Notes: generated by a model from the sequence alone, not told the origin. Shown: positions 11,675 through 61,430, numbered from the stretch's first letter. The stretch: DNA of 64,000 nt from an uncultured Gammaproteobacteria bacterium (GCA_964635715.1 CAZWNZ010000001.1:10358-74357); one strand, 5' to 3'. Translations and numbers: made by a program.

Positions 11675-12664
11675 CTAAATTGCAACAATGATGGTTGAAA
11701 TCACAATGAGAAGAACAACCGGAATTGTTTTTTTGATATTTTTATAGAATATTAGCCAAAAAATAGGCACAATTGGTGCTAAATACCTGCCTAAATTTTC
11801 CAAAAAAGGAACAAGATTGATACCAAGCGTAAAAATATAAAAAGCAGTAATAATCCAAAATTCCAAGCCACGGGATTTGAGAGCCTTCCAATATAAACAA
11901 ATATAAAAAGTAATGTAAAAAAAACCCGATAGCAAAATTCTGTACCAATGCCACCTTGCAGCTCTTATAAGATCGTAGAAAAGCTGTCCCATCCCAAAGC
12001 TAATTCTTGAAGGATGCAGCGCCTCGTAAGTAAAGAGCTGATAAAAAGGATTTTTTATTCCGAAAAAATACACGTTATAGATCACTAAAAGCACAACCGG
12101 AATCAAAAAATATGGTAGGTTAAGAACAGCCTTTTTAATTTTTTTTGTCATGATCATATAAAACACCATGCCAGCAAATATGGCTATTCCTGCAATTCTG
12201 AAAGTAACCGAGATACCCAAGACCAGAAACGCCCAACGAAATAAATCTTTTTTATAGAAATAAATTGCAAGAAGCATCAAAAATACAAAAGGCATCTCGG
12301 TATCAATTAGGGAAGACAAATTGAGTAATATCGGTGGAAAAATTAGTGGCAAAAAACTATATTTTGAACCCGTTAATTTATAGAGCAAAACATAGGATCC
12401 GATTAAAGACAATATTACAACTACATAACCTGCCAGAAATGAATTTCCTGTTATAAAATGAAGCAAATAAATGACAATTGGAAGCCCGGGCAAAAGGCGC
12501 GATTCAAAAAATGAAATTTTTCCAACATTTAAAGGAAGTGTCTCCGAATAACCAACATAGTTATCTTGCTGAACAATCCCATTATTAAATCTAATAAATG
12601 CCAAAAACACCGATATTATTACGCAAAGAATAAACAATTTATGTTTGTATATTTTTGTAAGCAT
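11675..12664 (-). CDS. polytopic membrane protein, putative glycosyltransferase/polymerase (GT-C, EpsG or Wzy-like fold); inserted between rpsJ and rplC
   Basis: About 10 predicted TM helices; aromatic and Pro-rich loops (FESRLLPGLPIVIY...). No soluble domain. Adjacent to a sugar-nucleotide epimerase. Confidence 0.35.
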   Translation of the reverse strand: MLTKIYKHKLFILCVIISVFLAFIRFNNGIVQQDNYVGYSETLPLNVGKISFFESRLLPGLPIVIYLLHFITGNSFLAGYVVVILSLIGSYVLLYKLTGSKYSFLPLIFPPILLNLSSLIDTEMPFVFLMLLAIYFYKKDLFRWAFLVLGISVTFRIAGIAIFAGMVFYMIMTKKIKKAVLNLPYFLIPVVLLVIYNVYFFGIKNPFYQLFTYEALHPSRISFGMGQLFYDLIRAARWHWYRILLSGFFYITFYICLYWKALKSRGLEFWIITAFYIFTLGINLVPFLENLGRYLAPIVPIFWLIFYKNIKKTIPVVLLIVISTIIVAI

Positions 12665-17896: not shown

Positions 17897-18330
17897 TTAA
17901 AATTTTCTATTTACTAGATGCCTATCTGTGTAAATAAGAACGTTTTGACCTTTGAAATTTAGATTATCTCTCTTTACTTTGAAACCTTGATTTTTTGCAT
18001 AATCAATTAGTGATTCTAACCAATTTACATTTGGTTTTTTAACTAAGGGTTCATCAATTACACAACAGGGTCAACCACGGTTACATCCCAGCCGTTTATA
18101 TTTAACAAAAGTGAAAGCAATCCTTTTCCACCACCAACATCTAAGGCTTTGGTGGGTTTGTATTTTTGGCTAAGCCACATCTGTAAAAGCTGAAAACGAA
18201 ACTTGTTGTTCAATCTTCGTTTTGTATTCATTAATCGGATTATACATTTTTTTAAATAATGAATTATATTATCTATTTTAATATTAATTAGTTCGATGGT
18301 TCGAACTATGGTACTATAAATATATGACAC
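17897..18330 (-). pseudogene. class I SAM-dependent methyltransferase remnant, frameshifted after motif I
   Basis: ORF 18058-18330 ends ...ALDVGGGKGLLSLLLNINGWDVTVVDPVV* (motif I). A second frame continues DEPLVKKPNVNWLESLIDYAKNQGFKVKRDNLNFKGQNVLIYTD... to a stop at 17897-17899. Confidence 0.45.
18289..18309. repeat. 21-bp direct repeat, 5' copy flanking TrpR-like gene 2 (8-4-8 dyad tagttcga-tggt-tcgaacta)
   Basis: tagttcgatggttcgaactat, identical to 18765-18785. Confidence 0.85.
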
Positions 18331-18767
18331 AAGTTTCTAGACATTTTATGAATCCTGATATTGAAAAGCGAGTTTATGAGGTATTTATAGAATCTGTTAA
18401 AAACACCAGAAATTCAAATGAAGTAATTGATTTTTTAAATGACTTACTTTCCCCTGTCGAAAAAATTATGATGGCAAAAAGAGTGGCCGTCGCATTTCTT
18501 TTACTTCAGGATAAATATACCTATGACCAAATTTCCAAAACCGTAAAGGTTAGTAGGGGTACAATTGCAAAAATTCATACCACTTTTGCTCTACAAGGAA
18601 AGGGGTATAGAAAAATTCTGGGAGATATTCTTAAAAGGAAAGTTGCGAAAATTGCATTATCGGAACTATTAGACGCGATAACTCTTCTTCCTCCAAAAGG
18701 TGCAAATCTTGGAGAATGGAAAAAGATGAAACGAAATGACAAATTAAAGAGAGAAAGTCCAATATAG
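18324..18767 (+). CDS. TrpR/YerC-like helix-turn-helix DNA-binding protein (paralogue 2 of 3)
   Basis: FLNDLLSPVEKIMMAKRVAVAFLLLQDKYTYDQISKTVKVSRGTIAKI (TrpR helix pattern). Confidence 0.6.
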   Translation: MTQVSRHFMNPDIEKRVYEVFIESVKNTRNSNEVIDFLNDLLSPVEKIMMAKRVAVAFLLLQDKYTYDQISKTVKVSRGTIAKIHTTFALQGKGYRKILGDILKRKVAKIALSELLDAITLLPPKGANLGEWKKMKRNDKLKRESPI

Positions 18768-27117: not shown

Positions 27118-28068
27118 TTATCTGAGGTATTTTGCAATATTTGCATTGTGCTCACTCAAAGTTTTTGCATAATGTATCTTGCCATTCGTATCATGAATGT
27201 AATACCAATAATTATTACTCTCGGGGTCAAGCGCCGCCTTTATTGATGAAAGTCCCGGATTGGCAATTGGGGTTGGTGGAAAGCCTTGATATTTATAAGT
27301 ATTGTATGAAGAGGTTGTCGACAAATCTTCCAATGTTAATATTGGCCACCAGTCTTTTGATGTGCCGACGGCATACTGAACCGAAGCGTCTACTTGTAAA
27401 GGCCAGCCTGCATCAAGCCTGTTAAGTAAAATTCCGGCAACAACAGGCCTTTCTCCATCTGTTTTTGTTTCTCTTTCTATTAATGATGCTAAAACTACTA
27501 CCTGAGAAAAGGAAAGACCTGAATTGTTTTTGATACCTTCTGTCTTGGCTGTAAAAGTATCTGTCATTTTCTGAACAACAAAGTCCGCTGTCACATCTCT
27601 CGGGAAAAGATAAGTTTCTGGAAATAAATATCCTTCTTTACCTTTTGAGGCCTCCAAAAATTCTGTAACAAAAGATGCATCTTTATCCAAAACCGTCACA
27701 AACTTTTGTGCAATTTCCTCCCTTCTTAATCCTTCCGGAATTGTAACCCAAAGCTCAACGGGACCTTTCATAAGTGCATTAACCGTTTGAAACAATGAAT
27801 AAGAAGGCGTTAGCATAAATTCACCGGCTTGCACTTTTCCTGTTTGACCTGAGAATTGAAGATATATTTTGAAAGCAAGCGCACTTTTGATCAGGCCTGC
27901 CGATTCAAGTTTGTTACCTATTTGTGATACAGATGACCCTTTATTTATAACAAAGTAGTCAAAATGTTCTTCTGTACTTACAGATCCGGAGTTTTTATAA
28001 AAAAAATAGCCTCCGAAGGCAGCAATAGCAATAACTACCAGGAATAAAAACACTAATATTTTTTTCAT
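27118..28068 (-). CDS. mltG: endolytic murein transglycosylase MltG (YceG-like)
   Basis: N-terminal TM; YceG motifs ...GYLFPETYLFP... and GFPPTPIANPG. Confidence 0.85.
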   Translation of the reverse strand: MKKILVFLFLVVIAIAAFGGYFFYKNSGSVSTEEHFDYFVINKGSSVSQIGNKLESAGLIKSALAFKIYLQFSGQTGKVQAGEFMLTPSYSLFQTVNALMKGPVELWVTIPEGLRREEIAQKFVTVLDKDASFVTEFLEASKGKEGYLFPETYLFPRDVTADFVVQKMTDTFTAKTEGIKNNSGLSFSQVVVLASLIERETKTDGERPVVAGILLNRLDAGWPLQVDASVQYAVGTSKDWWPILTLEDLSTTSSYNTYKYQGFPPTPIANPGLSSIKAALDPESNNYWYYIHDTNGKIHYAKTLSEHNANIAKYLR

Positions 28069-28423: not shown

Positions 28424-28972
28424 TTATTCATAAACATGGGGTCCACCAGGTGTATCACCAAGATTGGTTTCATTGTAATCAGTTACTAAAATTCCTTGAC
28501 GCCTATCCGGGGATGTTATTACAACATCCTCTTCATAATCTTCATCACCACAATGACAAAATCTAGCCTGACATTTTCCACCACAATGTTCATAAATGTA
28601 ATGACCACAATCACATTTCTCAAATTCAAATTGATCAACATTTCCAATTTGAAATTTTGAATTTCTTTCTCTTTCAATATAGTCATTCACTACTGCGTAT
28701 TTGGTACTGAAGCACCATGGAAAACATTTTGGACGACCTTTACTTCCCCTAGAAACAAGGAAACATAAACTTTCTCCTGCTTTGGGGTATGGGAGGTCAT
28801 ATGGCACATCAAGTTTACTAAAAGCAATTTCACTATTTCTGATTTCTAGCGCTCTACCGTCACCAAAATGAAGAAATATTTCAACATCTTCTCCGTCTGG
28901 CTTCACAAAACCATAACCTTTCACCTTATCAAACCAAACAACTCTTCCAAATTTTAATTCCATTTCACTCAC
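28424..28972 (-). CDS. cold-shock domain protein fused to a C-terminal Cys/His-rich (probable zinc-binding) domain
   Basis: N-terminus GRVVWFDKVKGYGFVKPDGEDVEIFLHF is a CSD; C-terminus CFPWCF...CDCGHYIYEHCGGKCQARFCHCGDEDYEE. Confidence 0.6.
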   Translation of the reverse strand: MSEMELKFGRVVWFDKVKGYGFVKPDGEDVEIFLHFGDGRALEIRNSEIAFSKLDVPYDLPYPKAGESLCFLVSRGSKGRPKCFPWCFSTKYAVVNDYIERERNSKFQIGNVDQFEFEKCDCGHYIYEHCGGKCQARFCHCGDEDYEEDVVITSPDRRQGILVTDYNETNLGDTPGGPHVYE

Positions 28973-29234
28973 TCACGTTTCGATTCTTTTGTCGCTTGCC
29001 CGCAAGGGTTCAAGTATCAGGAATCTAGCTACTTAAAAAGCAGCATTCCGAGCACAGTTTAAGTATGCCCAGAGTGCTGCCTTCAAATAGCTTTAGAGCA
29101 AGTTATCTCTTTGAAAGTTAAAGAACTTTTTGGCTAAGCTCAAGGCTATAGCCAAACTCGAATTCCAAGCAAATATAGAATTCAAGTATCCGATAGTATA
29201 ATATATCAGGGGCTAAAAATCCAGTGTATTACTG

Positions 29235-29612
29235 TTACGTAACACTAGTACACTTTGAGGATTGGCGGCTGGGTCGAAAATTATTTTTTTCAAATTTTTT
29301 ACTCCAAATAATACTAACCTCAACAAACCCTTTATTTATTAAATCTTGAGGTAAATTTTTAAAAGGACAACTACCAGCTCTCTCTAATTCACCAATAATC
29401 TTTCTTGCAATAGTAACTTGATTTTCGGTTGATTTTAAAACAGTGGCCATTTCACTAAGATTCAGGCCGGGAATACGCCTATGTTCCCAAAAATGATTTA
29501 CTAAATGAGCCGCACCATTTATATCCATTAATTGATTTTCCGGAAGGTCTTTAAGAAATGAGAGATCGAGTTCTTGTCTGGAATTGTCAGTTTCTTTTGA
29601 TTGCTCTACCAT
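29235..29612 (-). CDS. hypothetical protein, possible helix-turn-helix
   Basis: LNLSEMATVLKSTENQVTIARKIIGELERAG resembles an HTH; no confident family assignment. Confidence 0.3.
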   Translation of the reverse strand: MVEQSKETDNSRQELDLSFLKDLPENQLMDINGAAHLVNHFWEHRRIPGLNLSEMATVLKSTENQVTIARKIIGELERAGSCPFKNLPQDLINKGFVEVSIIWSKKFEKNNFRPSRQSSKCTSVT

Positions 29613-29650
29613 AACTGGAATTATATTAAGAATAATCGCAAAGTCAAAAA

Positions 29651-30034
29651 TTAGAAATTTAAATAATTTTGAAGCATTATGGCGGCGGCGTAGGCGTCTT
29701 CCATTTCTTTACGTTTCTTCCTGCCTATTCCGGCCTCTATTGATAAAGTTTGTGCATCGTGTGAAGTTAAAGTTTCGTCAAATGTTTCGACACTAATGGC
29801 CAATGGCAAATGACTAATGGCTAAAGCAAAGTTTTTACTTTCTTCTCCCATTTCTCCTTCCGAAACACCTACTACAACTTTTTCTATTTCCTCTTTTTCG
29901 ATAATTTTTTTAATCTCATTGATTAATAAATCCCCATCTTTGTATCTAATCACTTTGAGCGGTTCCGCCAACGGCCCGTCAGCCAAAGCCAACCCAACCT
30001 TACTCCTGCCATAATCAATTCCAAGTATTTTCAT
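29651..30034 (-). CDS. ruvX: Holliday-junction resolvase-like nuclease YqgF/RuvX
   Basis: MKILGIDYGRSKVGLALADGPLAEPL... RNase H-like YqgF N-terminus; ~127 aa. Confidence 0.8.
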   Translation of the reverse strand: MKILGIDYGRSKVGLALADGPLAEPLKVIRYKDGDLLINEIKKIIEKEEIEKVVVGVSEGEMGEESKNFALAISHLPLAISVETFDETLTSHDAQTLSIEAGIGRKKRKEMEDAYAAAIMLQNYLNF

Positions 30035-30121: not shown

Positions 30122-30811
30122 CTAGTCTTCGGGTGGAACCACCCTTGCCCTCACAATAAGTCTTTTCGGATATCTGGGGTCTCCCGGAGGTATGCAGGTT
30201 ACAAGAGTTATAAAAGAATCGCTGGAATCCTGATCCAGCACTTGCAAATCGGTCGGTGCAACCTCAAACATCTCTTCCACTTTGTAGGTGTATGATACGC
30301 CGTCATAATCGACGAACACAAAATCTCCGACCTTCATTGTCGGCAGCATTGTAAAAATAGAGATATAATTTTTCGGATTATTGAAAATCGGCAAAATTGA
30401 ATGACCGAATATAACAGCATTGCCGCGTTTTCCCGGAAGAGCTGTTCCCGGATATTGAATGAGGCTTTTGCTCAAATCTTCTCCGCCTATTGCCACTGTT
30501 GCCGATTCTATCTTGAGTTTTGGTATTGAGAGTGTGTAATAAGACACTTTTTCTGCGGTGAAATCCTCTACTGTTGCTCCGTTGGTAAACCAGCTGCTGG
30601 CCATGGTATCTTCTGTTCCTATGCCTGTCGATTCCGTCATAACTTTTTGTATCTGACCCTCCGAGTCGGCCAGCGGAGAAATTAGCTTGGTATAATTTTT
30701 CGAATATGTAGCATCATAGCTGACAATCGGATAAATCACCCCTATTAAAATGACTATTCCTGAAATACCTGAAATTAAAGCTGATATGCGCAATATTGTC
30801 TTTTGTTTCAT
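30122..30811 (-). CDS. sortase-family transpeptidase
   Basis: N-terminal TM; catalytic triad context IFGHS ... TLVTC ... RLIVRA. Confidence 0.7.
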   Translation of the reverse strand: MKQKTILRISALISGISGIVILIGVIYPIVSYDATYSKNYTKLISPLADSEGQIQKVMTESTGIGTEDTMASSWFTNGATVEDFTAEKVSYYTLSIPKLKIESATVAIGGEDLSKSLIQYPGTALPGKRGNAVIFGHSILPIFNNPKNYISIFTMLPTMKVGDFVFVDYDGVSYTYKVEEMFEVAPTDLQVLDQDSSDSFITLVTCIPPGDPRYPKRLIVRARVVPPED

Positions 30812-30856
30812 GCCAACAATTTTACTATATATTAATTTACAATCACTCGGGGAAAA

Positions 30857-33070
30857 TTACTCGGGTTTCACATCTACGGTAATATTCTTGGAAATTCTTG
30901 GGATGGTTTTCAAAAATCCCGGGAACTTAATTTTTAAAACAATATCCGCATGGTCAAAACCCTGAATAGAATTTAAGTATGAGGTGGCAATAGTTGTTGT
31001 CTTGCCGGATATCGTACTTTTTATCTTTTCCGCATCAACCTCAGGTAGGAAGTTTCCACCCACCACAACATCATAAACGTAATTGCCGTCTTGTTCTTCC
31101 ACAAAAGTGAACCTGAAATCTATCTGATCTGAAGTTAATATATAACCCGACGGGGATTTGTCGCCCAAAATTCCCTTTGCATATTCTAGAATTTGCTCCC
31201 TTTCTACTACCAAACCGGTAGCGTTAATTGTCAAAGCAAGCTTCAAATTGCTCGCCTGATCTCCAACATCATAATCGAAAATCTCTTTGGCAACATCCAA
31301 TCCGGCCAGGTCATTAACAAAGAGCTCGTCTGCAGAAATTTTTGCCGACAATTCCGATTTTGCATTCTGGCTAAGTTCTGTTTTCAACCCCTCCTCAAGC
31401 TCCGTTTGATCATCTTTGCTAACCGCCGAAATTTGCTGGCTACTACCGCCACTAAAGTCTGCTGTAGATGTTGCAGCAACAAGAGATTTGGAATAATTTC
31501 CAACACTAAATACTTCGCCCTTGGCTAAATTGTAGGTCGATCCAATATCATAAGCTGTGACATTCACAGTTGCAGTACCTGGGGAACCCGGCAAAATTTG
31601 ACCGGATATAGAGGCTTCATTATTTGTCAAAAATTTGAAACCTGACGAAGAAGTTAAAACTGTTCCTGACGTGAGATTTATAGCAACGCTGTTCCCGTTG
31701 GCTATCTCCACCGAACCTGACGCTTTATCACCAATAAGTTTGGTTCCTGTGGTTGATTTTGTTTTCTCACCGGACACTTCGCTTGTTACGGTTTTTGCAG
31801 GAATGATGTTGTTTTCTTGATTAAATTGATCTTTCGTACTGAATGTAATCCGCGCGCTCTCTTCCGCTCTCTTGGATGTAACATAAATAGTCACTTTAGC
31901 AGTTTGTGCAAACCACCATAAGCCAGCCACAGCCAGTAGAGCTAATCCGAGAATGGATAAGACCACCATCGGGACTCTTTTTTTCCCGGTAGAATTAATA
32001 TTTGGCTTGGAAAACATCTTGGAGAAAGAGTGGAATAGCTGTTTAGATTTGGTGAAATAATCTATATGTCCTTTTTGCGGTTGTGTGATCGGCGCTTCTA
32101 CCTGCTGAAATGGAGCTTTGGGATAAACATCAGTTGGGGGCGATTGTACAGGAACAACATTTTGGACATCTTCATTTTTCATCGAAGAAACGTCTTCCTC
32201 CAAAGCAAATCCCAAACTTTCCGCAGTCACGGGCTTTGTCTCTTCCGGTTTTTCATTTATTTCCTCATATTGAGGCTCCTCAACTTCTTTATATTCAGAC
32301 TTTTCGCTGCTGACCACTCCTTTGACGTCTCCCATCTCTGCTCCACCCGCTAAAGCTGTTGCTAATACTTTTTTATCCACACTTAAGACCTCCACCTGAG
32401 GTGTGTGTAAAAAGCTGATTTTACCTTCGCCCCAATTAGCCTGAAGCAAAGTCTGTTTTGCCTCCTCAAGCTCGCCTTCTTTTCCGTCATAGACAATGAA
32501 CCTTGTTGGTAGGGGTGATATCCCCTCAAATCTTGAAAGCCCCTCAATCACGTCATCCACCAGAGACACACTTCTTGAAACTTCCGTTGTTCCTGCCAGT
32601 TCGCCAAGTTTAAATACCGAAATTTCTAAATTTTCACCACTGGTATTCAAAACAATCGCATTAAGAGGTGATGATTCCTCGGATTTATATAAGTGAGCAA
32701 TTGCCTCAGGTAAGACAACGAATCCAACAGGAGTCAGAGAAAGCTCTGTGCAAAGTTTTTTTATTTTAAGAAGATTCTCCGGAGAAATCACTCCATCTTT
32801 TACCCATGAAGTGGAAACCCCAAAAACCGTCTTTGATGGTTCCGGATAATCCTCGGGGAGTTTTTGTATTGCCGATGAAAGAGCTGCATCAGTCGCTTCA
32901 ACCAACTCCTCATCATTTTCCCACGGAATTCCCGCCCCTATCCCGACAACCTTTGCCTCACCCTCACCTATATACCAAATTCCGGATTGCACCAAACCTT
33001 TTTCTATTACAAGTGCCCAAAAAAGCTCAGGTGGACTTTCTTTACTTGTTATCAAATCTTTAAGGTTCAT
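30857..33070 (-). CDS. large membrane protein: N-terminal cytoplasmic actin-fold (PilM/FtsA-like) domain, Pro/Glu-rich linker, one TM, ~350-aa Ser/Thr-rich extracellular domain
   Basis: N-terminus ...ALVIEKGLVQSGIWYIGEGEAKVVGIG...AIVLNTSGENLEISVFKLGELAG resembles PilM/FtsA nucleotide-binding strands. TM VVLSILGLALLAVAGLWWF at about residue 370. Confidence 0.35.
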   Translation of the reverse strand: MNLKDLITSKESPPELFWALVIEKGLVQSGIWYIGEGEAKVVGIGAGIPWENDEELVEATDAALSSAIQKLPEDYPEPSKTVFGVSTSWVKDGVISPENLLKIKKLCTELSLTPVGFVVLPEAIAHLYKSEESSPLNAIVLNTSGENLEISVFKLGELAGTTEVSRSVSLVDDVIEGLSRFEGISPLPTRFIVYDGKEGELEEAKQTLLQANWGEGKISFLHTPQVEVLSVDKKVLATALAGGAEMGDVKGVVSSEKSEYKEVEEPQYEEINEKPEETKPVTAESLGFALEEDVSSMKNEDVQNVVPVQSPPTDVYPKAPFQQVEAPITQPQKGHIDYFTKSKQLFHSFSKMFSKPNINSTGKKRVPMVVLSILGLALLAVAGLWWFAQTAKVTIYVTSKRAEESARITFSTKDQFNQENNIIPAKTVTSEVSGEKTKSTTGTKLIGDKASGSVEIANGNSVAINLTSGTVLTSSSGFKFLTNNEASISGQILPGSPGTATVNVTAYDIGSTYNLAKGEVFSVGNYSKSLVAATSTADFSGGSSQQISAVSKDDQTELEEGLKTELSQNAKSELSAKISADELFVNDLAGLDVAKEIFDYDVGDQASNLKLALTINATGLVVEREQILEYAKGILGDKSPSGYILTSDQIDFRFTFVEEQDGNYVYDVVVGGNFLPEVDAEKIKSTISGKTTTIATSYLNSIQGFDHADIVLKIKFPGFLKTIPRISKNITVDVKPE

Positions 33071-33153: not shown

Positions 33154-35001
33154 TTAGCTTTTAATTAAAGCGGCATATATTCTAATAATTCCTGCTCCAA
33201 TTTTCTCTTGTTTAATTATTCTAACATCCCCAATCTCACCTGTGCGAGTAACATGTGGTCCACCACACACTTCTCGACTGAAAGGAGATCCTGAGCGAGC
33301 TTCGCGAGTCGAAGGACCGATTGAATACACTTTTACTTCTTTTCCGTATTTTTCTGCAAAGAAGTGCATTGCGCCCAACTTTATTGCATCGGATAAACTC
33401 ATTGTAGTAAAACTCACTGGCAAATCTTCTTTTATCTTTTTATTCATCAGGTCCTCAACTTCTCCGACCTCTTCATCTGTAAGCTTTTGTGGATGAGAAA
33501 AATCAAATCTTAATCTTTCTGCAGTAATATGACTTCCTTTTTGTCCAACATGTTCACCCAACACTTCTCTTAGTGCCGCCTGCAATAAATGTGTAGCTGT
33601 ATGTAGTTTTGTAGTAACAATAGACGCCTCAGACAGTCCCCCCTTAAACATTCCAGCAGATGCACTTCTTGAGGCATCTTTGTGTTTTTCAAATTCCGTT
33701 TCAAAGGCATTTTTTTCTTCAGGAGAGAAACTAAAGCCATTTTGTTTTAGAATTTCTATAGTCAGCTCAAGGGGAAACCCTTCGGTTTGATAAAGATCAA
33801 AAGCGAATTCTCCATTAATTAATTTCCCGTCATTTACAGCTTTCGTTAATTTTCCAAGTCCCCGCTTTAATGCTGCTTCAAAACGAGTTGCCTCAGTTGT
33901 TAGATTCTCCTCAATAAATTGCCAATTTTTATCTACGTTGGGATAAAACTTTCTATACTCTTCTGCAATATGTGCGATAGCAAGCCCAGAAATTCCAGAT
34001 CCTAAAAGGTGAAAGTGAAACATTGCGCGCCTGATGAGTCTTCTTAATGCATAACCTTGAAGTTTGTTGCTTGGAACAACTCCCTCAGCAAGTAAATTTG
34101 TTGATGCCCGAAGGTGGTCTGCAATAATTCTAAAACTCCTATCTTTACTAGAGTCCGTGGAATAAGCTGTCCCAACTTCTTTTTCGATTTTTTGAATAAC
34201 ACCGATAAACATATCGATTTTGAAAACGTCTGGATTATCAACTAGAGCTGCTGCTGCTCGCTCCAGTCCGCCCCCAAAATCAACATTTTTTTGAGGAAGT
34301 TCTTTTAGAGACCCGTCCTCCATTTTTTGGTACTGCACAAACACTGAATTTCCTATTTCTAAAAATTTTCCACAGTCACAATTGGGATGGCAGAAGTCAC
34401 CAAACTTTGGGTCGTGGGGAACGTCGGTAAATTCATAAAAAATTTCACTATCAGGACCACCTATTTCTCCCGCTGGCATATTTGAGGGGACGCCAGCCCT
34501 ACTCCACCAATTTTTTTCTGGTCCATAAAAATGAATATGGGTTTCGGGAACACCCAGACCTTTCCATATTTCAAAAGATTCAGTGTCTTTTGGAACACCG
34601 TCTGTTCCTTCAAAAACGCTTACGTGTAGTCTTTCAGGAGAGATCCCTAATTCTTTTGTATAAAATTCCCACACAAAGGCAAGTTGTTCTTTTTTGAAAT
34701 AATCTCCCAAGCTCCAGTTGCCAAGCATTTCAAAAAAAGTTATGTGACGATTGTCCCCAACTTCCTCAAGATCCTGAAGCCTTAGTGAGGGTTGAGAATC
34801 TGTAAGTCTTACTCCTTCAGGATGTTTTTCCCCTTTCAAAAAAGGGACCAGTTGTTGCATTCCACTACTTGTAAAAAGGGTCGTTGGATCCCCTTCAATA
34901 ATAAGTGGGCTTGGAATAATTTCTTTATGTCCCTGCTTTTTAAAAAACTCTAAATATTTTTTCCTAATCTCTGTTGTAGTCATGGCTAAAGTATAGTACA
35001 A
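33154..35001 (-). CDS. alaS: alanine--tRNA ligase (catalytic and editing domains; C-Ala domain absent)
   Basis: N-terminus EIRKKYLEFFKKQGHKEIIPSPLI...LFTSSGM; editing motif HTATHLLQAAL...; 615 aa. True start probably MTTTEIR (ATG rc 34981-34983). Confidence 0.9.
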   Translation of the reverse strand: MYYTLAMTTTEIRKKYLEFFKKQGHKEIIPSPLIIEGDPTTLFTSSGMQQLVPFLKGEKHPEGVRLTDSQPSLRLQDLEEVGDNRHITFFEMLGNWSLGDYFKKEQLAFVWEFYTKELGISPERLHVSVFEGTDGVPKDTESFEIWKGLGVPETHIHFYGPEKNWWSRAGVPSNMPAGEIGGPDSEIFYEFTDVPHDPKFGDFCHPNCDCGKFLEIGNSVFVQYQKMEDGSLKELPQKNVDFGGGLERAAAALVDNPDVFKIDMFIGVIQKIEKEVGTAYSTDSSKDRSFRIIADHLRASTNLLAEGVVPSNKLQGYALRRLIRRAMFHFHLLGSGISGLAIAHIAEEYRKFYPNVDKNWQFIEENLTTEATRFEAALKRGLGKLTKAVNDGKLINGEFAFDLYQTEGFPLELTIEILKQNGFSFSPEEKNAFETEFEKHKDASRSASAGMFKGGLSEASIVTTKLHTATHLLQAALREVLGEHVGQKGSHITAERLRFDFSHPQKLTDEEVGEVEDLMNKKIKEDLPVSFTTMSLSDAIKLGAMHFFAEKYGKEVKVYSIGPSTREARSGSPFSREVCGGPHVTRTGEIGDVRIIKQEKIGAGIIRIYAALIKS

Positions 35002-45152: not shown

Positions 45153-46130
45153 TTAACTTACGTTAGTCCCTTTAAAAATCTTTGGCTGGAGCCAATCGTC
45201 GGGAGGATTAATATCAGGCGTTTCTACGCCCATTTCTCCTGAAGGTTTGTTGGGCTGAGTTTCAACCTGTGCAATAGGAGTCACTTGTTGCACTTGCTTA
45301 CTGGCCGTGACTTCGGCTGAGACTGGCTCTACTTTTTGTACTTGTTCGCCATATGGTCTTGCTGGAATCGAGCCGACAGGAAAGCCAGCCGGACTTAATC
45401 TGGTCCTGGGTGATCTTTGTGCATTATTCCTCAAAAGATAGGCGAAAGTCTCAAATGTATCAGCAGTAACTTCCGGATTTGCAAAGTTGCTGCTTCCATC
45501 TTCAATTCCCATAACTAAATTTGTTGCCACATCGGTATCTACTGTTAATCCATTATCCTTTATTAAAACCGCCATCAGTTCGCTTGTTGTGGCACTTGGC
45601 TTTGCAAAGGATAAAATTTCACGCTTAGCTTCCAAGGCTCTTGTTCCTATGTGTACCACTTTTGAATTGGCCAAATCGGTCAAAGACAAAATTGGAAAAT
45701 GTGTTTCATTTGCCCCACCGATTAAAATTATCAAATCGGCTGCAGTTCCTGAGTAATCAATTGTTATCTGTTCCTTCTGCGGTGCGGTAAAACCGCTTTT
45801 TGGAGTGACTGTAAGTTTAAATTCTCCACCTTCAATATCGTAACCAACTTTATCTATGTTTGCAGCTTCATAATTAGCAAACTTAATAGTTAGATTTTTC
45901 TTTCCTAATTCTTGGCTTATTTTATTTATCCCAATAAGTCTATTAAATCCCACCATCATTGGTGTCGGGCAAAAAATGCTAATATCTTTTCTTTCATGAA
46001 TTGAAAGATAAAGAGCAAGACCTGCCGCAACTTGATCAAAATATGGTTTGGTTGGCAATGCTATGAGAACAGAGGACGCCGAATCAACTAATGATAAAAA
46101 ATTATTTTCCATTTTGTGGTAAGTAATCAA
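45153..46130 (-). CDS. NrnA/DHH-like protein with degenerate catalytic motifs and a Pro/Gln-rich C-terminal tail
   Basis: Architecture parallels NrnA (VLIALPTKPYFDQVAAGLALYL...DLIILIGGANETHF), but DHH and HxH..PDxD residues are replaced. Located between infB and rpsO. Confidence 0.35.
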   Translation of the reverse strand: MITYHKMENNFLSLVDSASSVLIALPTKPYFDQVAAGLALYLSIHERKDISIFCPTPMMVGFNRLIGINKISQELGKKNLTIKFANYEAANIDKVGYDIEGGEFKLTVTPKSGFTAPQKEQITIDYSGTAADLIILIGGANETHFPILSLTDLANSKVVHIGTRALEAKREILSFAKPSATTSELMAVLIKDNGLTVDTDVATNLVMGIEDGSSNFANPEVTADTFETFAYLLRNNAQRSPRTRLSPAGFPVGSIPARPYGEQVQKVEPVSAEVTASKQVQQVTPIAQVETQPNKPSGEMGVETPDINPPDDWLQPKIFKGTNVS

Positions 46131-49222: not shown

Positions 49223-49672
49223 ATGACTAAAATTTCAAAATTGCCATTAAGATCTGATGTTTGGAATCGGATTTTTGATTTGTTCGTCAGTACCCTATCC
49301 AACCAAAGAGATAAAAAGAAATTATCAAATTTTATTAATGATTTTTTCTCGCCAACTGAAAGAATAATGTTTGCAAAAAGGTTGGCTATTGCGGTTCTGG
49401 TCGCAAAAGGCCAAGATTATCAAAGTATCCACGAAATTTTGAAAGTAAGTCCACCAACTATTGCAAAACTTAGTTTAAGAATCAAATATATGGGGGAGGG
49501 TTTAAACCCTGTTATTAGAGATATTTTTAAGAGTCAGGCGTTGCAAATTATATGGAAAGAAACTGAAGATCTGTTTGATTTGCCAACAAAAGGTAACTTA
49601 AAATCGCCCGAAAGATTTAAAAGAAAACTTCGAAGAGTGAAGCAAATTAATAAAATGAGATCGGAATTTTAA
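49223..49672 (+). CDS. TrpR/YerC-like helix-turn-helix DNA-binding protein (paralogue 3 of 3)
   Basis: FINDFFSPTERIMFAKRLAIAVLVAKGQDYQSIHEILKVSPPTIAKL. Confidence 0.6.
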   Translation: MTKISKLPLRSDVWNRIFDLFVSTLSNQRDKKKLSNFINDFFSPTERIMFAKRLAIAVLVAKGQDYQSIHEILKVSPPTIAKLSLRIKYMGEGLNPVIRDIFKSQALQIIWKETEDLFDLPTKGNLKSPERFKRKLRRVKQINKMRSEF

Positions 49673-56220: not shown

Positions 56221-56514
56221 ATGCCAGTAACAAAAACAGCAAAGAGAGCCCTCAGGGGTTCGAAAAATAAAGCAGAAGTAAATAAGCTTTTAATAAAAAG
56301 GCTTGAGATTGCTATCCGTATGGCAAAAAAGTCTAAATCTCCCAAAGAAGTTCTGACTGCAACTTCTCTAGCTGATCGTGCCGCAAAAAAAAGAATCATT
56401 CATAAAAATAAAGCGGCTAGAGTTAAATCCCAACTAGCAAAATTGATTACTGCAAACAAAGTTTCAAAGATTAAAAAAACCACTTCTAAAAAAGTTTCTT
56501 CTAATAAGAAATAA
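56221..56514 (+). CDS. rpsT: 30S ribosomal protein S20
   Basis: TKTAKRALRGSKNKAEVNKLLIKRLEIAIRMA...KRIIHKNKAARVKSQLAKLI matches S20 (...KGLIHKNKAARHK...). Confidence 0.85.
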   Translation: MPVTKTAKRALRGSKNKAEVNKLLIKRLEIAIRMAKKSKSPKEVLTATSLADRAAKKRIIHKNKAARVKSQLAKLITANKVSKIKKTTSKKVSSNKK

Positions 56515-56577
56515 TTTGCTTCTTTCACGCATTTACATGTGCTATATTGGTTTAAGGCCGTGTGTCTTATATAGTTT

Positions 56578-57108
56578 ATGCCCAAAAATAAAGCAATCAA
56601 TTTACTGCCTTTAGAGGAGTTTAACGCTTCAACCACCGGCCGTGTTCTAAAATGGGCGACAGGAACTTTCCGTGTGATTGTAATTATCACTGAAATGGTT
56701 GTTATGGGAGCTTTTTTGTCACGGTTCTGGCTGGATGCCCAAAATTCAACTCTAAACAACGCAATAAAAGCAAAAAGTGCCCAAATTTCCGCACAAACTG
56801 ATTTAGAGCAGCGTTTCAGAAACACTCAATTAAAACTGAATGTATTTAAACAAATTGATCAAAGTAATAATTTATCTTCTTATGTTGACAACATTACCAG
56901 CAAGGTTCCTGAAAATATCACTTTATCAAAAATATCCATTGAGAAAGAGGCTATATCTATTACGGGTTCGTCTTTATCGGATTATGATATCGCGGTATTT
57001 ATAGCCAGTCTGCAAAATCCACCATTTAAAGAGGCTGTTTTAAGTCAGGTGGGTTCATCTGAAAACAATCCCGGAGAAACCAATTTTACAGTGAGCGCGA
57101 TTTATTAA
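56578..57108 (+). CDS. pilN: type IV pilus assembly protein PilN-like
   Basis: INLLP signature at residues 7-11, TM, coiled-coil, C-terminal ferredoxin-like periplasmic region. Confidence 0.65.
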   Translation: MPKNKAINLLPLEEFNASTTGRVLKWATGTFRVIVIITEMVVMGAFLSRFWLDAQNSTLNNAIKAKSAQISAQTDLEQRFRNTQLKLNVFKQIDQSNNLSSYVDNITSKVPENITLSKISIEKEAISITGSSLSDYDIAVFIASLQNPPFKEAVLSQVGSSENNPGETNFTVSAIY

Positions 57109-57112
57109 TACT

Positions 57113-57772
57113 ATGGCATCAGGTTGGAGATCATCATATTACCGATATAAACAACTGTTTCTAAATGTTTCTGCCACTTATAAAAAGAGGTCGGATCTTC
57201 GTGCGTTTTTGGAAATAGTTTTGTCGTTAATTGCAGTAATCATTTTCGTAGTTTTTGCATTAAAACCTACCGCCTTAACCATTATTAGTCTTGTCCAACA
57301 GATAAAAGAAGAGAAAAAGGTTCTAACCTCACTCAACCAAAAGGTCAGTGACTTGCAAAAAGCATCCACTCTTTTAACCCAAAATCAAATGTTTTTGGAT
57401 AACATTAATCTTGCCATCTCCACTACACCAAGTCCTGATATATTTGCAAAACAAATATTGGGAATGTCTGCCAAAAATAATGTTGAGCTGATGGCTTTAT
57501 CCATTAACGAAGTTGTTATAATTGGGAACACAAAAAAGATAGTTTCCAAAGAAACAGAACCATTGCCTGAGAATGCTAACGAAATTGGATACTCGATCAG
57601 TATAAAAGGCGGTTTTGCCAATATAAACACATTTTTAAAAGATATTGAAAATCTCAGAACAATATCGAAAATAGACAGCCTCACAATTAGCTCTTCCATA
57701 AGTGACTCTGGAAGGGTTATAGTGGCTGTAATTTCAGGTAGAATTCCTTATTTGGAACAAGTCAAAAAATGA
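57113..57772 (+). CDS. pilO: type IV pilus assembly protein PilO-like
   Basis: Short cytoplasmic N-terminus, TM (LEIVLSLIAVIIFVVFAL), coiled-coil, C-terminal domain; follows pilN with a 4-nt gap. Confidence 0.55.
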   Translation: MASGWRSSYYRYKQLFLNVSATYKKRSDLRAFLEIVLSLIAVIIFVVFALKPTALTIISLVQQIKEEKKVLTSLNQKVSDLQKASTLLTQNQMFLDNINLAISTTPSPDIFAKQILGMSAKNNVELMALSINEVVIIGNTKKIVSKETEPLPENANEIGYSISIKGGFANINTFLKDIENLRTISKIDSLTISSSISDSGRVIVAVISGRIPYLEQVKK

Positions 57773-58137
57773 AAAAAAATCGTCTCCCCAAACCAATAAC
57801 CATACTAATATTGACACTTTTAACTGCAGTACTTTGGGTAGGTTTAAATATATATAGAACTTTTACAATTAAGCCGGATGCTCCTGTTCCTGAAAGTGTA
57901 TCCAATCCTTTGAATCCGGTACTCAACACTGAAGTCATTCAGCAAATAGAATCCGCTATTTACATTCCCGATTCTGAAATTCCACAAATTGGTACAAACA
58001 TTCAAATAACAGCGACACCCCTGCCTGTGCTGACCGAGGAGGAAATGACCGAAGCTGAAACAGGATCCGAAACTGAATCAACCGAAAGCGGATCTTTTCA
58101 GGCAACTGAAGATGAAACAACAACCGAAGAAAAATGA
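57769..58137 (+). CDS. small signal-anchored protein with acidic Glu/Thr-rich tail
   Basis: TM ITILILTLLTAVLWVGL; C-terminus EEEMTEAETGSETESTESGSFQATEDETTTEEK. 4-nt overlaps with both neighbouring genes. Confidence 0.4.
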   Translation: MKKNRLPKPITILILTLLTAVLWVGLNIYRTFTIKPDAPVPESVSNPLNPVLNTEVIQQIESAIYIPDSEIPQIGTNIQITATPLPVLTEEEMTEAETGSETESTESGSFQATEDETTTEEK

Positions 58138-59507
58138 TAAAGAAAAAAAATATACCAACAATACTTGGAATACTGCTTCTTTTGGGTGGCGTATTTACCG
58201 GTGTGATTCTTCTTAAGAACAATCAACTGTTCAGAATAGGTGCAAGTTCCACAGCAGCTCCCAAGGATGTAAGAGTCAGTAGTGTTTCTGATTCCACAGC
58301 TACCATTACTTGGGTCACCGGAGAACCCACATCGGCTTTTATTTCTTATGGTACCGATGAAAATACCGGAACCGTTATTAATGAGACAGAAAATGACCAA
58401 AAATATACCACTCACAGTATCACTATTACAGGTCTTTCTGCCAGTTCCACCTATTACTTAAAAATAAACTCTAACGGCACAACATTTGACAACAATGGGG
58501 TTCCTTGGCAATTTATTACAGGTGAAAATCTACCTCTAAGCCAGAAGTCGATTCCGATATCTGGATCCGTTATCTCCGCGTCAGGAACATCCATGAAAAG
58601 GGCAATTGTTTACATAACTATAAACGGTTATGTGATTTCAACAATGACCTCAGAAAATGGAACTTTTGTTTTACAAATCGGATCCGCCAGAACTCCCGAT
58701 CTTTCCGCTTATGCAGATATTGATCTTGAGAAAACCCTTCTGGAAATTTCGGTTACGGCGGAGACCGGAGAAACTGCAATTGCAAAAATCTTTTCTCAAT
58801 CCGCAAACCCAATTCCTGCATTAATAATTGGCCAAGATCAAGATTTCAGAAATTTGGAACCTTTATCCAACGGTTTAAATCCAGATGCCAATCTTAGCCT
58901 TCCTGAAAGTGCGACGGCTGAGTCTAAACTTGATGTCAGTCAATCCGAAACTATTTCTACAACAACCCTAACCTTGGACAGTATTACTGAAGGAGAGGTA
59001 ATCACCAGCAATCAACCTCAACTTTTCGGGGATGGGCCAAAAGGAACCGAGATTACAATTACTATTCACTCCGACACGGAAATTTCAGGATCGGCAGTTG
59101 TTTCATCAAGTGGCCTGTGGAATTGGTCGCTTCCAACCGATCTTTCTCCCGGTGCTCACACAATTACTATTTCCTGGATCGACTCACTAGGCATTGCCAG
59201 AACTCTAACCAGAAATTTTATCGTCCAAGCCGGTGAATTGCCTGCATTTGAAGCATCACCATCAGGCACTCCTACGACGACGCCAAAACCAAGTCAAACT
59301 CCTTCCCCCACACCAATTCCAAGTGCGACAAAAACTCCCTTAGCTACCAAAAGCCCAACCCCAAAGCCGACTGCTATTCCAACCACAACTCCGGAATCTT
59401 TACCTGAATCTGGAATCTTGACTCCGACTCTTCTACTATCTATGATGGGGATAGGCGTAATAACCTTTGCTTTTTATATTTGGAAAAAATCAGAAGATGA
59501 GTCCTAA
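58134..59507 (+). CDS. cell-surface protein: signal anchor, fibronectin type III-like domain, Pro/Thr-rich stalk, C-terminal LPESG sorting signal
   Basis: FN3-like APKDVRVSSVSDSTATITWVTGEPTSAFISYG...YYLKINS. C-terminus TPESLPESGILTPTLLLSMMGIGVITFAFYIWKKSEDES (LPxxG + hydrophobic + charged tail). Confidence 0.65.
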   Translation: MIKKKNIPTILGILLLLGGVFTGVILLKNNQLFRIGASSTAAPKDVRVSSVSDSTATITWVTGEPTSAFISYGTDENTGTVINETENDQKYTTHSITITGLSASSTYYLKINSNGTTFDNNGVPWQFITGENLPLSQKSIPISGSVISASGTSMKRAIVYITINGYVISTMTSENGTFVLQIGSARTPDLSAYADIDLEKTLLEISVTAETGETAIAKIFSQSANPIPALIIGQDQDFRNLEPLSNGLNPDANLSLPESATAESKLDVSQSETISTTTLTLDSITEGEVITSNQPQLFGDGPKGTEITITIHSDTEISGSAVVSSSGLWNWSLPTDLSPGAHTITISWIDSLGIARTLTRNFIVQAGELPAFEASPSGTPTTTPKPSQTPSPTPIPSATKTPLATKSPTPKPTAIPTTTPESLPESGILTPTLLLSMMGIGVITFAFYIWKKSEDES

Positions 59508-59542
59508 ATTGAATCTAGAATTATAAATTACTAATAATATCC

Positions 59543-60820
59543 ATGCCCAACCAAGATCCAACAAACAACAATCCTCCCCAAGAGAATACCCCGGTAAATC
59601 CTGTAAGTTCGGTCTCTTTTTCACCTCAGGCAGATTTACCGCCATTACCGCCGGAATTCCAAAATCTGGAAGGCAGTCAAGTTAATCCACCAACCGCCAA
59701 CTCAACGTCGTCATCCGATCCTACAGGAGATTCTGGTTCTGCAGCGCCGCCGCCAGCTTTTGCAAATATTGCCCCTGCTCCAAAGAAAAAGTTTGGAACC
59801 AAAAAAATAATTGCCACGATTTTAGGAATAATCGGGCTTGTGGGAGCGGTCGGAGCAGGAACATATCTTGTTGGACAAAAACAACTATTTCAACAAAAAG
59901 CCGACACACTATATGAATGTTCAAATGCTTACTGTGTAAGGTGTACTTGCGGATGTACATCATCCAATGCAGATTGCAGTGGACCAACTAATTGTAACCC
60001 CGATTGTCCAACCGCCACTCCAGTTTCAACGGACAGGCCTAATACATGCGAAGAAAATGGTTTTACATGTAAAACACCTGGCGGTGATGGTCATTGTCCA
60101 ACAGGGTCATATGATCGATCTGGAACATGTGCTAATGGTGTGTGTTGTTATACTCCATCCGACCCAGAACCCACATCCAGAACAGGATGGGGAATCGGAG
60201 AAGCTTGCACTAATACATCAGGAACGGGAACTCAGTGTGTTCTTGCTATTTGCCCATATGGGTGTGAAGGTAGTTGTGATTCTAACGATCCGGGTGTTAC
60301 TTTGAAATATGGAAATTGTGAGACACTTGCAAGTGAAGTGCTGAGTACTTGTGGCCAAGTTGATTTAGTTAATTCTTCAGGTGTTTATTGTGATGTTGAT
60401 CCATCGGATGGTATAGATGCTCAAATAACATGTCCTCAACCCAGATGTGCTGTTGATGATACACCTACGAGTGAGCCTAAATCTTCACCAACCCCAACTC
60501 CCACCACCGCTGCACCCTACTGCGCTGCCGTAAAAGCTTACGATACAGAATGGGAAGTACTTTCCTCAACCGACTTGACATCTCTATCAGAAGGATCTGT
60601 TGTTAACTTCTGTGTATCGGGTCTTCCATTATCCAATTCTTTCGACAAAGCTCAATTTACTATCAACGGTGTTAAACAAACTGAGACCTCTGTAAACAGA
60701 CCTCAATCGGCAGAGACAACTTATTACAACGAGTTCTGTCAGTCTTATACAATACCAAGCGGAACAACAACGTTTACTGTCACGGGTCAGATTCACCACT
60801 CTACGCTCGGGTGGTTTTAA
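59543..60820 (+). CDS. membrane-anchored protein: Pro-rich cytoplasmic N-terminus, one TM, large Cys-rich extracellular domain
   Basis: TM IIATILGIIGLVGAVGAGTYLV; more than 40 Cys in CxxC/CC clusters (CSNAYCVRCTCGCTSSNADCSGPTNCNPDCPT...). Confidence 0.5.
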   Translation: MPNQDPTNNNPPQENTPVNPVSSVSFSPQADLPPLPPEFQNLEGSQVNPPTANSTSSSDPTGDSGSAAPPPAFANIAPAPKKKFGTKKIIATILGIIGLVGAVGAGTYLVGQKQLFQQKADTLYECSNAYCVRCTCGCTSSNADCSGPTNCNPDCPTATPVSTDRPNTCEENGFTCKTPGGDGHCPTGSYDRSGTCANGVCCYTPSDPEPTSRTGWGIGEACTNTSGTGTQCVLAICPYGCEGSCDSNDPGVTLKYGNCETLASEVLSTCGQVDLVNSSGVYCDVDPSDGIDAQITCPQPRCAVDDTPTSEPKSSPTPTPTTAAPYCAAVKAYDTEWEVLSSTDLTSLSEGSVVNFCVSGLPLSNSFDKAQFTINGVKQTETSVNRPQSAETTYYNEFCQSYTIPSGTTTFTVTGQIHHSTLGWF

Positions 60821-60826
60821 AAATAT

Positions 60827-61423
60827 ATGAAAAAACCTGTTAGCAAAATCGGAACAATTTTAATAATAATAGCCACAGTCATTCTGGCTGGAATTGCGAT
60901 TTTTACAGCCTACAGATTGTATCAACTTAGACAAACCTCTGTCGCACCTAATGTTCCCAGCAGCATGCCAAAGGCTGAAGAATCAACTGCAAGCCCTGCT
61001 CCCACTAGCAATTGTTCCCTATCGTTTACCATATCGACATCCACTCCTACCACTACAGCCACAGCTACAGCTACTGCAACAGCCACAGCAACTGCGACGG
61101 CTACAGCTACTGCAACAGCCACGCCAACTTCATCCGGTACTCCGAACTCTTGCGGTGGAACTTGTGGAAGTAATACTAATTGTGGATCAGGTCTTTACTG
61201 TTATAACGGTTACTGTCGTAATCCATCGTGTTCTAATGAAATAGATTGTGTCTGTCCGACAGGCACCTCTACGGCCACAGCAACTGCGACAGCAAAAAGT
61301 TCCACCCCAACTTCTACACCTGAAGAAGTCACTCTTCCCGAGTCAGGTACAGGCTGGACGACTTTCATGGGTATCGGAGTCGGAATGTTGGTTGTTCTAG
61401 GATCAATTCTTTTAGCTCTCTAA
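60827..61423 (+). CDS. cell-surface protein with (Thr-Ala)n repeat, small Cys-knot module and C-terminal LPESG sorting signal
   Basis: TTATATATATATATATATATATATPT; CGGTCGSNTNCGSGLYCYNGYCRNPSCSNEIDCVCP; C-terminus EEVTLPESGTGWTTFMGIGVGMLVVLGSILLAL. Confidence 0.65.
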   Translation: MKKPVSKIGTILIIIATVILAGIAIFTAYRLYQLRQTSVAPNVPSSMPKAEESTASPAPTSNCSLSFTISTSTPTTTATATATATATATATATATATATPTSSGTPNSCGGTCGSNTNCGSGLYCYNGYCRNPSCSNEIDCVCPTGTSTATATATAKSSTPTSTPEEVTLPESGTGWTTFMGIGVGMLVVLGSILLAL

Positions 61424-61430
61424 TTTCATT

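Follow-up and report, generated by a model that had tools for sequence, protein, structure and literature searches.

A 64,000-nucleotide stretch of DNA from an uncultured bacterium (GCA_964635715.1 CAZWNZ010000001.1:10358-74357; hereafter the window) carries a two-gene unit in which the gene for a 737-residue bitopic membrane protein, here called X, is followed directly by the gene for a sortase. The X gene lies at 30857..33070 and the sortase gene at 30122..30811, both on the minus strand. Protein X joins a cytoplasmic domain of the ASKHA (acetate and sugar kinases/Hsp70/actin) type, through a linker and one transmembrane helix, to an ectodomain that is homologous to the phage baseplate wedge protein J/gp47. 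We consider it quite possible, although short of probable, that X serves as a membrane-spanning scaffold or partner for the sortase in a two-gene envelope module found throughout Microgenomates/Woesebacteria, which belong to the Candidate Phyla Radiation (CPR).

The layout of X is evident from conservation and composition. A conserved N-terminal domain (residues 1–250; 32321..33070) is followed by a variable linker (residues 251–365; 31976..32320) that is rich in Glu, Lys, Ser, and Pro and shows low column conservation and many gaps. Next come a single transmembrane helix, read from the sequence (residues 366–388, VPMVVLSILGLALLAVAGLWWFA; 31907..31975), and a conserved Ser/Thr/Gly-rich C-terminal domain (residues 389–737; 30860..31906). 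The residues KKR ahead of the helix indicate an N-in/C-out topology, which places the N-terminal domain and the linker in the cytoplasm. An initial annotation of this DNA had described a cytoplasmic N terminus, a Pro/Glu linker, one transmembrane segment, and a Ser/Thr-rich outer domain of about 350 residues, and this description agrees with our analysis. The two minus-strand open reading frames that it reported are real genes rather than chance occurrences, given that the family of X comprises 1137 cluster representatives (50% identity) at E ≤ 1e-30. At E ≤ 1e-3 the number rises to 4928, and homologs remain full length down to ∼26%–30% identity. The most divergent full-length member (26% identity) is encoded on a 183-kb contig (L094, from ERR14790927). 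That genome has a full shikimate pathway beside the X–sortase pair, an unusual trait when compared with the typical reduced genomes of CPR.

In public databases, members of the X family are labeled either “hypothetical” or “baseplate J/gp47 family protein,” and a search of the PDB with the single sequence of X gave no match. We found no published description of the family, or of its pairing with a sortase, in the literature on sortases of CPR, Patescibacteria, and Woesebacteria, on baseplate J, on actin-like proteins, or on Chloroflexi. The possibility that X is itself a sortase substrate was considered and rejected. Its C terminus has no LPxTG-like motif with a transmembrane helix, and its sole YPK sequence, which is not conserved, falls within the cytoplasmic linker.

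The downstream gene encodes a 229-residue protein that begins with a transmembrane helix and matches both Pfam Sortase (PF04203, 88.6 bits against a cutoff of 26.6) and TIGR01076 (57.2 against 39.35). All class-specific NCBIfam models for sortases (classes A to F) score below their cutoffs, the best being class C (55.2) and class E (46.8) against cutoffs of 160. The initial annotation had pointed to an HS...TLVTC...R triad. The corresponding residues are His137 (in FGHS), Cys206 (in TLVTC), and Arg217. Each shows at least 95% conservation across 82 orthologs, and the enzyme is predicted to be active on the strength of this conservation. Sortases are near-ubiquitous in Microgenomates and are enriched in CPR as a whole (PMC6744442).

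Related loci were collected by a genome scan with an 11-sequence alignment, whose two patterns bias the collection toward Woesebacteria. When the count is limited to the 81 loci with at least 750 bp of sequence after X, the next gene is a sortase in every case (81/81). The median gap between the two genes is 4 bp, and about 20 of the pairs overlap by 4 bp. The pair persists in members of only 26%–30% identity and is also kept in other surroundings. In one arrangement it is placed between an SBP gene and a class A penicillin-binding protein (PBP) gene, with VanW and LCP genes nearby, and in another a FemAB gene precedes X–sortase–ruvX–yceG–PMT. Across the loci, the cell-wall-related neighbors are mltG, FemAB, PBP1, LCP, the rodZ-like gene, and ftsK. 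This is strong genomic evidence that X and the sortase form a functional pair with a cell-wall flavor.

A partial precedent for such a pair is the actinobacterial srtA–safA system, in which a housekeeping sortase gene is tightly linked to the gene for a small membrane protein presumed to modulate the sortase. The tight linkage of a sortase gene to a membrane protein gene is common to both systems. However, X is a three-part protein of 737 residues with unrelated folds, and its companion sortase falls under every NCBIfam class cutoff. Among sortase systems, the X–sortase pair stands out by an accessory protein that has no precedent.

The wider gene order is equally stable. Genomes representing ∼80 Microgenomates species have an essentially invariant gene order, namely ftsK, rodZ-like (HTH_25), alaS, X, sortase, ruvX, yceG (mltG), and rpoB, and more distant members of the X family are found in the same order. 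All on the minus strand of the window, alaS (33154..35001; NCBIfam PRK01584, 659 bits) is the upstream neighbor of X, ruvX (29651..30034; Pfam RuvX, 94.6 bits) follows the sortase gene, and mltG, which encodes a YceG-family endolytic transglycosylase (27118..28068; Pfam YceG, 266.6 bits), is the conserved gene farther downstream. Profile matches and synteny thus confirm the flanking genes named in the initial annotation. Its view that the sortase and X were inserted between alaS and ruvX has to be given up, since both hold this slot throughout the lineage and the gene for the ectodomain occupies it in Chloroflexota as well (see below). Recent insertion or carriage by a mobile element is likewise rejected on the grounds of synteny and base composition, the G+C content of the region being like that of its surroundings.

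The window as a whole is AT-rich (∼39% G+C), with almost every gene on the minus strand. Its core genes encode ribosomal proteins, EF-Tu and EF-G, RpoB and RpoC, InfB, NusA, Pnp, DnaK and DnaJ, GrpE, HrcA, MurJ, and FtsK. The names attached to the close homologs place the window in a genome of the Candidatus Woesebacteria/Microgenomates (CPR) type. Many public records of metagenome-assembled genomes that carry a Woesebacteria-type locus (L005, L006, L008, L017, L022–L024, and others; P0049) bear one of the titles “uncultured Gammaproteobacteria bacterium,” “Alphaproteobacteria bacterium,” and “Vicinamibacterales bacterium.” Their rpoB genes are 70%–89% identical to that of the window, and these taxonomic labels are apparently wrong.

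Structure prediction indicates that the N-terminal domain of X has the fold of the actin superfamily. An AlphaFold2 model built from 145 homologs (pLDDT 95.0, pTM 0.91) contains a β-β-β-α-β-α-β-α lobe twice in succession, which corresponds to the duplicated RNase-H-like lobes that define ASKHA proteins. At the sites where actin, Hsp70, FtsA, and PilM carry subdomains IB, 1C, or IIB, the model has loops of just 8–11 residues. The domain is therefore predicted to be a minimal ASKHA/actin-type core with no inserted subdomains. A Foldseek search of the PDB with this model matched 556 chains at E ≤ 1e-3, and all 50 matches listed are ASKHA-type proteins. The leading matches are Pseudomonas aeruginosa PilM (5eox, 1.2e-8), Aquifex Ppx/GppA (1.4e-8), Vibrio FtsA (1.7e-8), and EutJ (2.7e-7; rmsd 4.9 Å), whereas GspL is absent from these top 50. 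TM-scores normalized to the query range from 0.4 to 0.65 across PilM, FtsA, Ppx/GppA, and EutJ, with the highest value given by Staphylococcus aureus FtsA. Since these proteins score about equally, PilM and FtsA are not singled out as relatives. No Pfam family matches the N-terminal domain in any of 50 diverse members of the X family (0/50). The PilM_2, FtsA, SHS2_FTSA, GspL, GspL_C, and PilN profiles match none of the 50 proteins at E ≤ 1, and the family profile finds no solved ASKHA protein among PDB sequences even at E ≤ 10.

The nucleotide-binding motifs of the ASKHA superfamily are poorly kept in X. When motif positions are taken from the predicted secondary structure, neither the phosphate-1 loop (DxG) nor the phosphate-2 loop (DxGGGT) is conserved. 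Strand 1 should end in an acidic residue (position 23), but Glu is found there in only 56% of members. The phosphate-2 hairpin conserves neither an Asp or other acidic residue nor a Gly-Gly-Thr. A connect-1 sequence (PEAIA) and the Gly of the adenosine motif (Gly242) are retained. Because the phosphate loops are not conserved, the domain is probably a noncatalytic adaptor, although it may bind nucleotides. The proposal that the N terminus of X resembles PilM or FtsA therefore stands in one respect and fails in another. The actin fold that had been anticipated is present in the model of residues 1–250, with PilM and FtsA among the nearest structures, but the 1C (SHS2) and IIB subdomains are lacking and the ATP-binding loops are not conserved.

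X shares with PilM and FtsA the two-lobed RNase-H-like core and a location at the inner face of the cytoplasmic membrane. It differs in that its gene lies outside pil and dcw clusters and in that X has a transmembrane helix of its own as a membrane anchor, whereas PilM and FtsA rely on a PilN peptide or an amphipathic helix. The ftsZ context typical of FtsA is also absent.

The cytoplasmic linker, some 115 residues long, is not conserved except for one short motif, [LFV]-G-F-[VA]-x-x-x-D-[VI], at residues 286–294 (32189..32215). Among the 50 diverse members, Gly287 is present in 49, Phe288 in 48, and Asp293 in 44. A conserved island of this kind within variable sequence is typical of a peptide docking site, and the motif may function as one.

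The ectodomain is a homolog of the baseplate wedge protein J/gp47/gp6 of phages and tailocins. An AlphaFold2 model of this region (353 residues, pLDDT 96.6) was compared with the PDB by Foldseek, and the best match was diffocin TRI-2 (2.4e-7), followed by proteins of phage XM1, phi812, A-1(L), Pa193, Mu (gp47), and phiCD508. These seven baseplate structures match at E values from 2.4e-7 to 1e-4 over 310–370 aligned columns, but with TM-scores of only 0.20–0.25 and rmsd values above 20 Å. Because the local alignments run along most of the ectodomain, its structural elements seem to follow a common order, but the domains are arranged differently. All strong structural neighbors are phage or tailocin baseplates, and dozens of “Baseplate J-like” proteins in BFVD also match structurally. 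At the sequence level, Pfam Baseplate_J (PF04865) matches the window protein at 23.9 bits against a cutoff of 21.1 and matches 44 of the 50 diverse members, the best at 1e-8. The β-barrel segment responsible (residues 447–543; 31442..31732) is the sole part of the ectodomain that can be detected by a sequence profile. In addition, the X family profile finds diffocin TRI-2 (CD1371) among PDB sequences at 3.4e-5.

These findings revise the earlier idea that X includes PilN and an extracellular scaffold. The family was aligned with the window's own PilN by hhalign at a probability of just 0.35%, no PilN-like segment comes after the transmembrane helix, and the outer domain is neither PilN-like nor a generic scaffold. 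The resemblance to phage proteins is also a distant one. The window protein has no match in PHROGs, and a tblastn search with both domains of X against 50,697 phage records found none. Compared with the wedge proteins (PF04865; diffocin TRI-2 CD1371, Mu gp47, phi812 ORF62), X shares the β-barrel segment in sequence, but it has an anchor in the cytoplasmic membrane on its N-terminal side and a fused cytoplasmic domain, is encoded in a housekeeping operon, and has no close phage relative. Neither the window nor ∼90 related loci contain genes for sheath, tube, gp25, gp48/TssG, or other components of contractile tails or type VI secretion systems.

A second phylum has a shorter version of the protein. 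The most distant match to X (P0317, 510 residues) led to a family in Chloroflexota (Promineifilaceae, Ardenticatenales) with 307 hits, whose members are ∼505–540 residues long and are named “baseplate J/gp47 family protein” at NCBI. Profile–profile comparison of the Chloroflexota and CPR families by hhalign gave a probability of 99.9% (E 9.9e-34) over 377 columns. The alignment begins at the transmembrane helix of X and includes all residues after it, through the ectodomain to the C terminus. The Chloroflexota relative also matches PHROG_6, “baseplate wedge subunit,” at 1.1e-14. In three of four loci, the Chloroflexota gene directly follows alaS (once with a 4-bp overlap) and precedes ruvX–yceG, and in none of the four loci does a sortase gene adjoin it. 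As a side observation, the alaS product next to the Chloroflexota homolog is 898–904 residues long and includes the DHHA1 domain (L092, L096, L101), whereas the window and its CPR relatives have a short form (615 residues in the window, ∼600–620 in general) that lacks this C-terminal domain.

The two families therefore share the transmembrane helix, the whole ectodomain, and the slot between alaS and ruvX–mltG, but the Chloroflexota side has neither an ASKHA domain nor an adjacent sortase. In place of the former, the cytoplasmic part holds a conserved domain of ∼90 residues (IYLDxEDDIVSIxDRL...LRLEVGLVT...) and an Arg-rich linker (WWRGRRR) (P0317 residues 1–135; L092 7001–7405). This domain has no Pfam match and no match among PDB sequences, and it does not align with the ASKHA domain of CPR. 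The occupied slot in Chloroflexota means that the X gene was not inserted in the window genome. A membrane-anchored baseplate-J-like protein between alaS and ruvX–mltG predates the split of the two lineages, or else was exchanged between them very early. What marks the CPR version is the presence of the ASKHA domain and the sortase.

Candidate substrates for the sortase are encoded elsewhere in the window. A plus-strand cluster at 56221–61718 contains, in order, rpsT, a PilN-like gene, a weakly PilO-like gene, and genes for a 122-residue transmembrane protein, a 457-residue protein, a 425-residue Cys-rich protein, a 198-residue protein, and a 95-residue membrane protein. The 457-residue product (58134..59507) is an FN3/Ig-domain surface protein that ends in LPESG, a transmembrane helix, and a charged tail containing KK. 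The 198-residue product (60827..61423) is rich in Thr and Ala and ends in LPESG and a transmembrane helix. Eight metagenome loci (L084–L091) have kept the cluster together with its flanking genes, and in one relative the X cluster and this cluster are found on a single contig of 118,854 bp (L028, identical to L089). Sorting signals in the relatives vary only as LP[EQVN]SG or IPQTG: The 457-residue protein has LPQSG or IPQTG, and the 198-residue protein has LPVSG or LPNSG. On the basis of these signals, both proteins are credible substrates of the sortase. A third product flagged by the sorting-signal pattern is the 95-residue protein (61431–61718), which has two transmembrane helices and, before the last of them, an FPKSG motif kept in all relatives of the cluster. 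This protein is probably not a substrate but a small component of the membrane.

The PilN-like protein (56578–57108; Pfam PilN, 35.7 bits against a cutoff of 22.8) begins with MPKNKAINLLP. The match of the following gene (57113–57772) to PilO is weak and falls below the cutoff, at 17.8 bits. The stand-alone pilN and pilO genes and the two LPESG proteins noted initially at 56.5–61.4 kb are thus present and conserved, with this reservation about PilO. The window contains no pilB, pilC, pilD, pilM, or pilT gene, and its PilN and PilO homologs appear to belong with substrates of the sortase type, not with a set of pilus genes.

The favored interpretation, in which X is a scaffold or partner for the sortase, can be put as a sequence of steps. 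The ectodomain descends from a stock common to it and the baseplate wedge protein J/gp47, and the CPR version has gained the ASKHA domain and a dedicated, translationally coupled sortase, the module being carried within a housekeeping operon (ftsK, rodZ-like, alaS, X, sortase, ruvX, mltG, rpoBC). Synthesized at a constant ratio, X and the sortase would then come together in the membrane. The ectodomain, whose fold builds oligomeric rings in phage tails, could assemble into a platform at the membrane's outer surface, on which the sortase might cleave LPxSG proteins and attach the cleaved products to a wall precursor. The ASKHA domain and the LGFVxxxDV motif may join this platform to a cytoplasmic partner that sets the site or time of action.

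Several observations weigh against this scheme. The link between X and the sortase would be drawn from gene adjacency only, and one Woesebacteria contig of 3083 bp (L062, JAUYMM010000073.1) has ruvX immediately after the gene for a 660-residue X and lacks the intervening sortase gene. This is the only exception seen, and it could be a real loss or an artifact of assembly on a very short contig. Because the ASKHA domain lies inside the cell and the catalytic domain of the sortase outside, the two proteins could touch only through their transmembrane helices or through the ectodomain. The poor rigid-body superposition of the ectodomain on baseplate proteins (TM-score ∼0.22) means that ring formation cannot be assumed. 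Likewise, the apparent loss of ATPase activity depends on motif positions in a predicted structure, and nothing ties the PilN/PilO-like genes or the LPxSG proteins to X. Finally, since the Chloroflexota homolog has no sortase, the ancestral role of the ectodomain must have differed, and sortase scaffolding may be secondary or wrong.

Some of these same facts fit a different role, in which X is an envelope-spanning regulator or scaffold of peptidoglycan synthesis, remodeling, or division that acts with MltG, PBPs, RodZ, or FtsK. Under this hypothesis, the ASKHA domain would be an FtsA-like membrane-attached adaptor, and the sortase would be adjacent merely as a fellow user of lipid II. The sortase-free Chloroflexota homolog is readily accommodated, as is the fact that alaS, ruvX, and mltG are the deepest conserved neighbors, in two phyla. 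The upstream ftsK and rodZ-like genes, the class A PBP, VanW, LCP, and FemAB genes that flank distant members, and the top TM-score of S. aureus FtsA (0.65) also favor it. However, the invariable adjacency in 81 loci and the frequent 4-bp overlaps suggest a tie to the sortase beyond a shared substrate. The N-terminal domain has no FtsA subdomain 1C and no FtsA Pfam match, and since alaS–ruvX–mltG is present in many bacteria without X, position alone says little about function. On balance we judge this role unlikely, although it is the main rival to the scaffold interpretation. A more ambitious hypothesis, which we find rather improbable, is that X is the core of a hitherto unrecognized apparatus that spans the envelope and that Chloroflexota and Patescibacteria received from their common ancestor. 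Its membrane-anchored ectodomain would form a ring or lattice on the cell surface. In CPR, the motif-bearing linker would connect this structure to the ASKHA domain as a cytoplasmic pseudo-ATPase, and the sortase would load LPxSG proteins covalently onto it or around it.

Two further possibilities start from resemblances to known machines. The initial annotation regarded X as PilM, PilN, and an extracellular scaffold on one polypeptide, that is, a GspL-like fusion acting with PilN/PilO and the sortase in a type-IV-pilus-like platform that assembles LPESG proteins. The type II secretion protein GspL/EpsL has a degenerate actin-fold domain in the cytoplasm, one transmembrane helix, and a PilN-like folded domain in the periplasm, and X has the same overall layout. 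PilM heads the Foldseek list, and the window's PilN-like protein has the INLLP N terminus, no adjacent pilM, and LPxSG proteins for neighbors. Nevertheless, the PilM match is no better than those to Ppx/GppA, FtsA, and EutJ. In PilM, subdomain 1C forms the groove for the PilN peptide, as seen in published PilM:PilN structures, and X lacks this subdomain. The outer domain of X is baseplate-J-like where GspL has the ferredoxin-like PilN fold, none of the 50 diverse members matches PilM_2, GspL, GspL_C, or PilN, and the secretion ATPase and pseudopilin context of GspL is missing. The X gene is also 24 kb from the pilN cluster, in a separate conserved operon (alaS–X–sortase–ruvX) rather than with pilN, pilO, pilB, or pilC, and the 64 kb contain no genes for a type IV pilus ATPase, platform, or peptidase. 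Moreover, CPR are reported to have a canonical PilM family with a GspL domain (PMC6744442). As the Chloroflexota homolog has neither ASKHA domain nor sortase, the ancestral gene shows no evident link to pili, and a hybrid of sortase-dependent assembly and a pilus-like machine appears very unlikely. The “Pam pilus” of CPR described in a 2026 preprint is a different, chaperone–usher-like system with unrelated genes and is not relevant to X. The other possibility is that X is a phage-related remnant or decoy. Its ectodomain would then be a baseplate protein domesticated from a prophage or tailocin, or else would act at the surface as a decoy or receptor in phage interactions. This would account for the Pfam Baseplate_J match, for the PHROG_6 match of the Chloroflexota relative, for the fact that all strong structural neighbors are phage or tailocin baseplates, and for the NCBI name. 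Yet the vicinity contains no genes for sheath, tube, gp25, gp48, or any other tail component, the gene has a fixed position in a housekeeping operon in ∼80 species and in a second phylum, and its G+C content is like that of its surroundings. A membrane anchor with a cytoplasmic domain and the lack of any tblastn match in 50,697 phage genomes make this possibility highly improbable.

Whatever the precise role of X, the conserved sortase of this CPR lineage is obligately paired in the genome with a protein whose architecture has no precedent and whose family spans more than 1000 clusters at 50% identity, and X is a concrete candidate for positioning or controlling sortase activity in these bacteria. 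A phage-baseplate fold is present as a cellular ectodomain encoded in a housekeeping operon in two phyla, and a minimal, apparently noncatalytic ASKHA domain joins the set of membrane-tethered actin-fold adaptors. The arrangement alaS–X–ruvX–mltG may also provide a synteny character that links Chloroflexota and Patescibacteria. CPR cells are poor in wall components and depend on hosts. If the apparatus hypothesis were true, X would mark a new kind of organelle or attachment platform on the surface of ultrasmall, episymbiotic bacteria, and the phage baseplate J fold would have an old cellular counterpart.

Other features of the window were observed in passing. Promoter and terminator scans of 26.9–36.2 kb gave counts no higher than those for shuffled sequence, and the scan placed no terminator-like site between alaS, X, the sortase gene, and ruvX. 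Between ruvX and mltG, on the minus strand at 28424–29612, lie a 125-codon open reading frame of no known family and a 182-codon open reading frame that encodes a cold-shock domain and a Cys/His-rich tail. Both are missing from nearly all of the ∼80 related loci, with a weak match to the 182-codon frame in one locus only (L021), and a promoter-like site with 11 of 12 matching positions is present just upstream, at 29647–29620. The pair looks like a strain-specific insertion inside the conserved operon. Two other minus-strand open reading frames within housekeeping operons, at 45153–46130 (325 residues) and 11675–12664 (329 residues), have no Pfam match at E ≤ 1e-3. The window also has three paralogous small genes of the Trp-repressor family (PF01371), at 1551–1976, 18324–18767, and 49223–49672. 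All three are on the plus strand, and each sits alone amid long minus-strand housekeeping operons.

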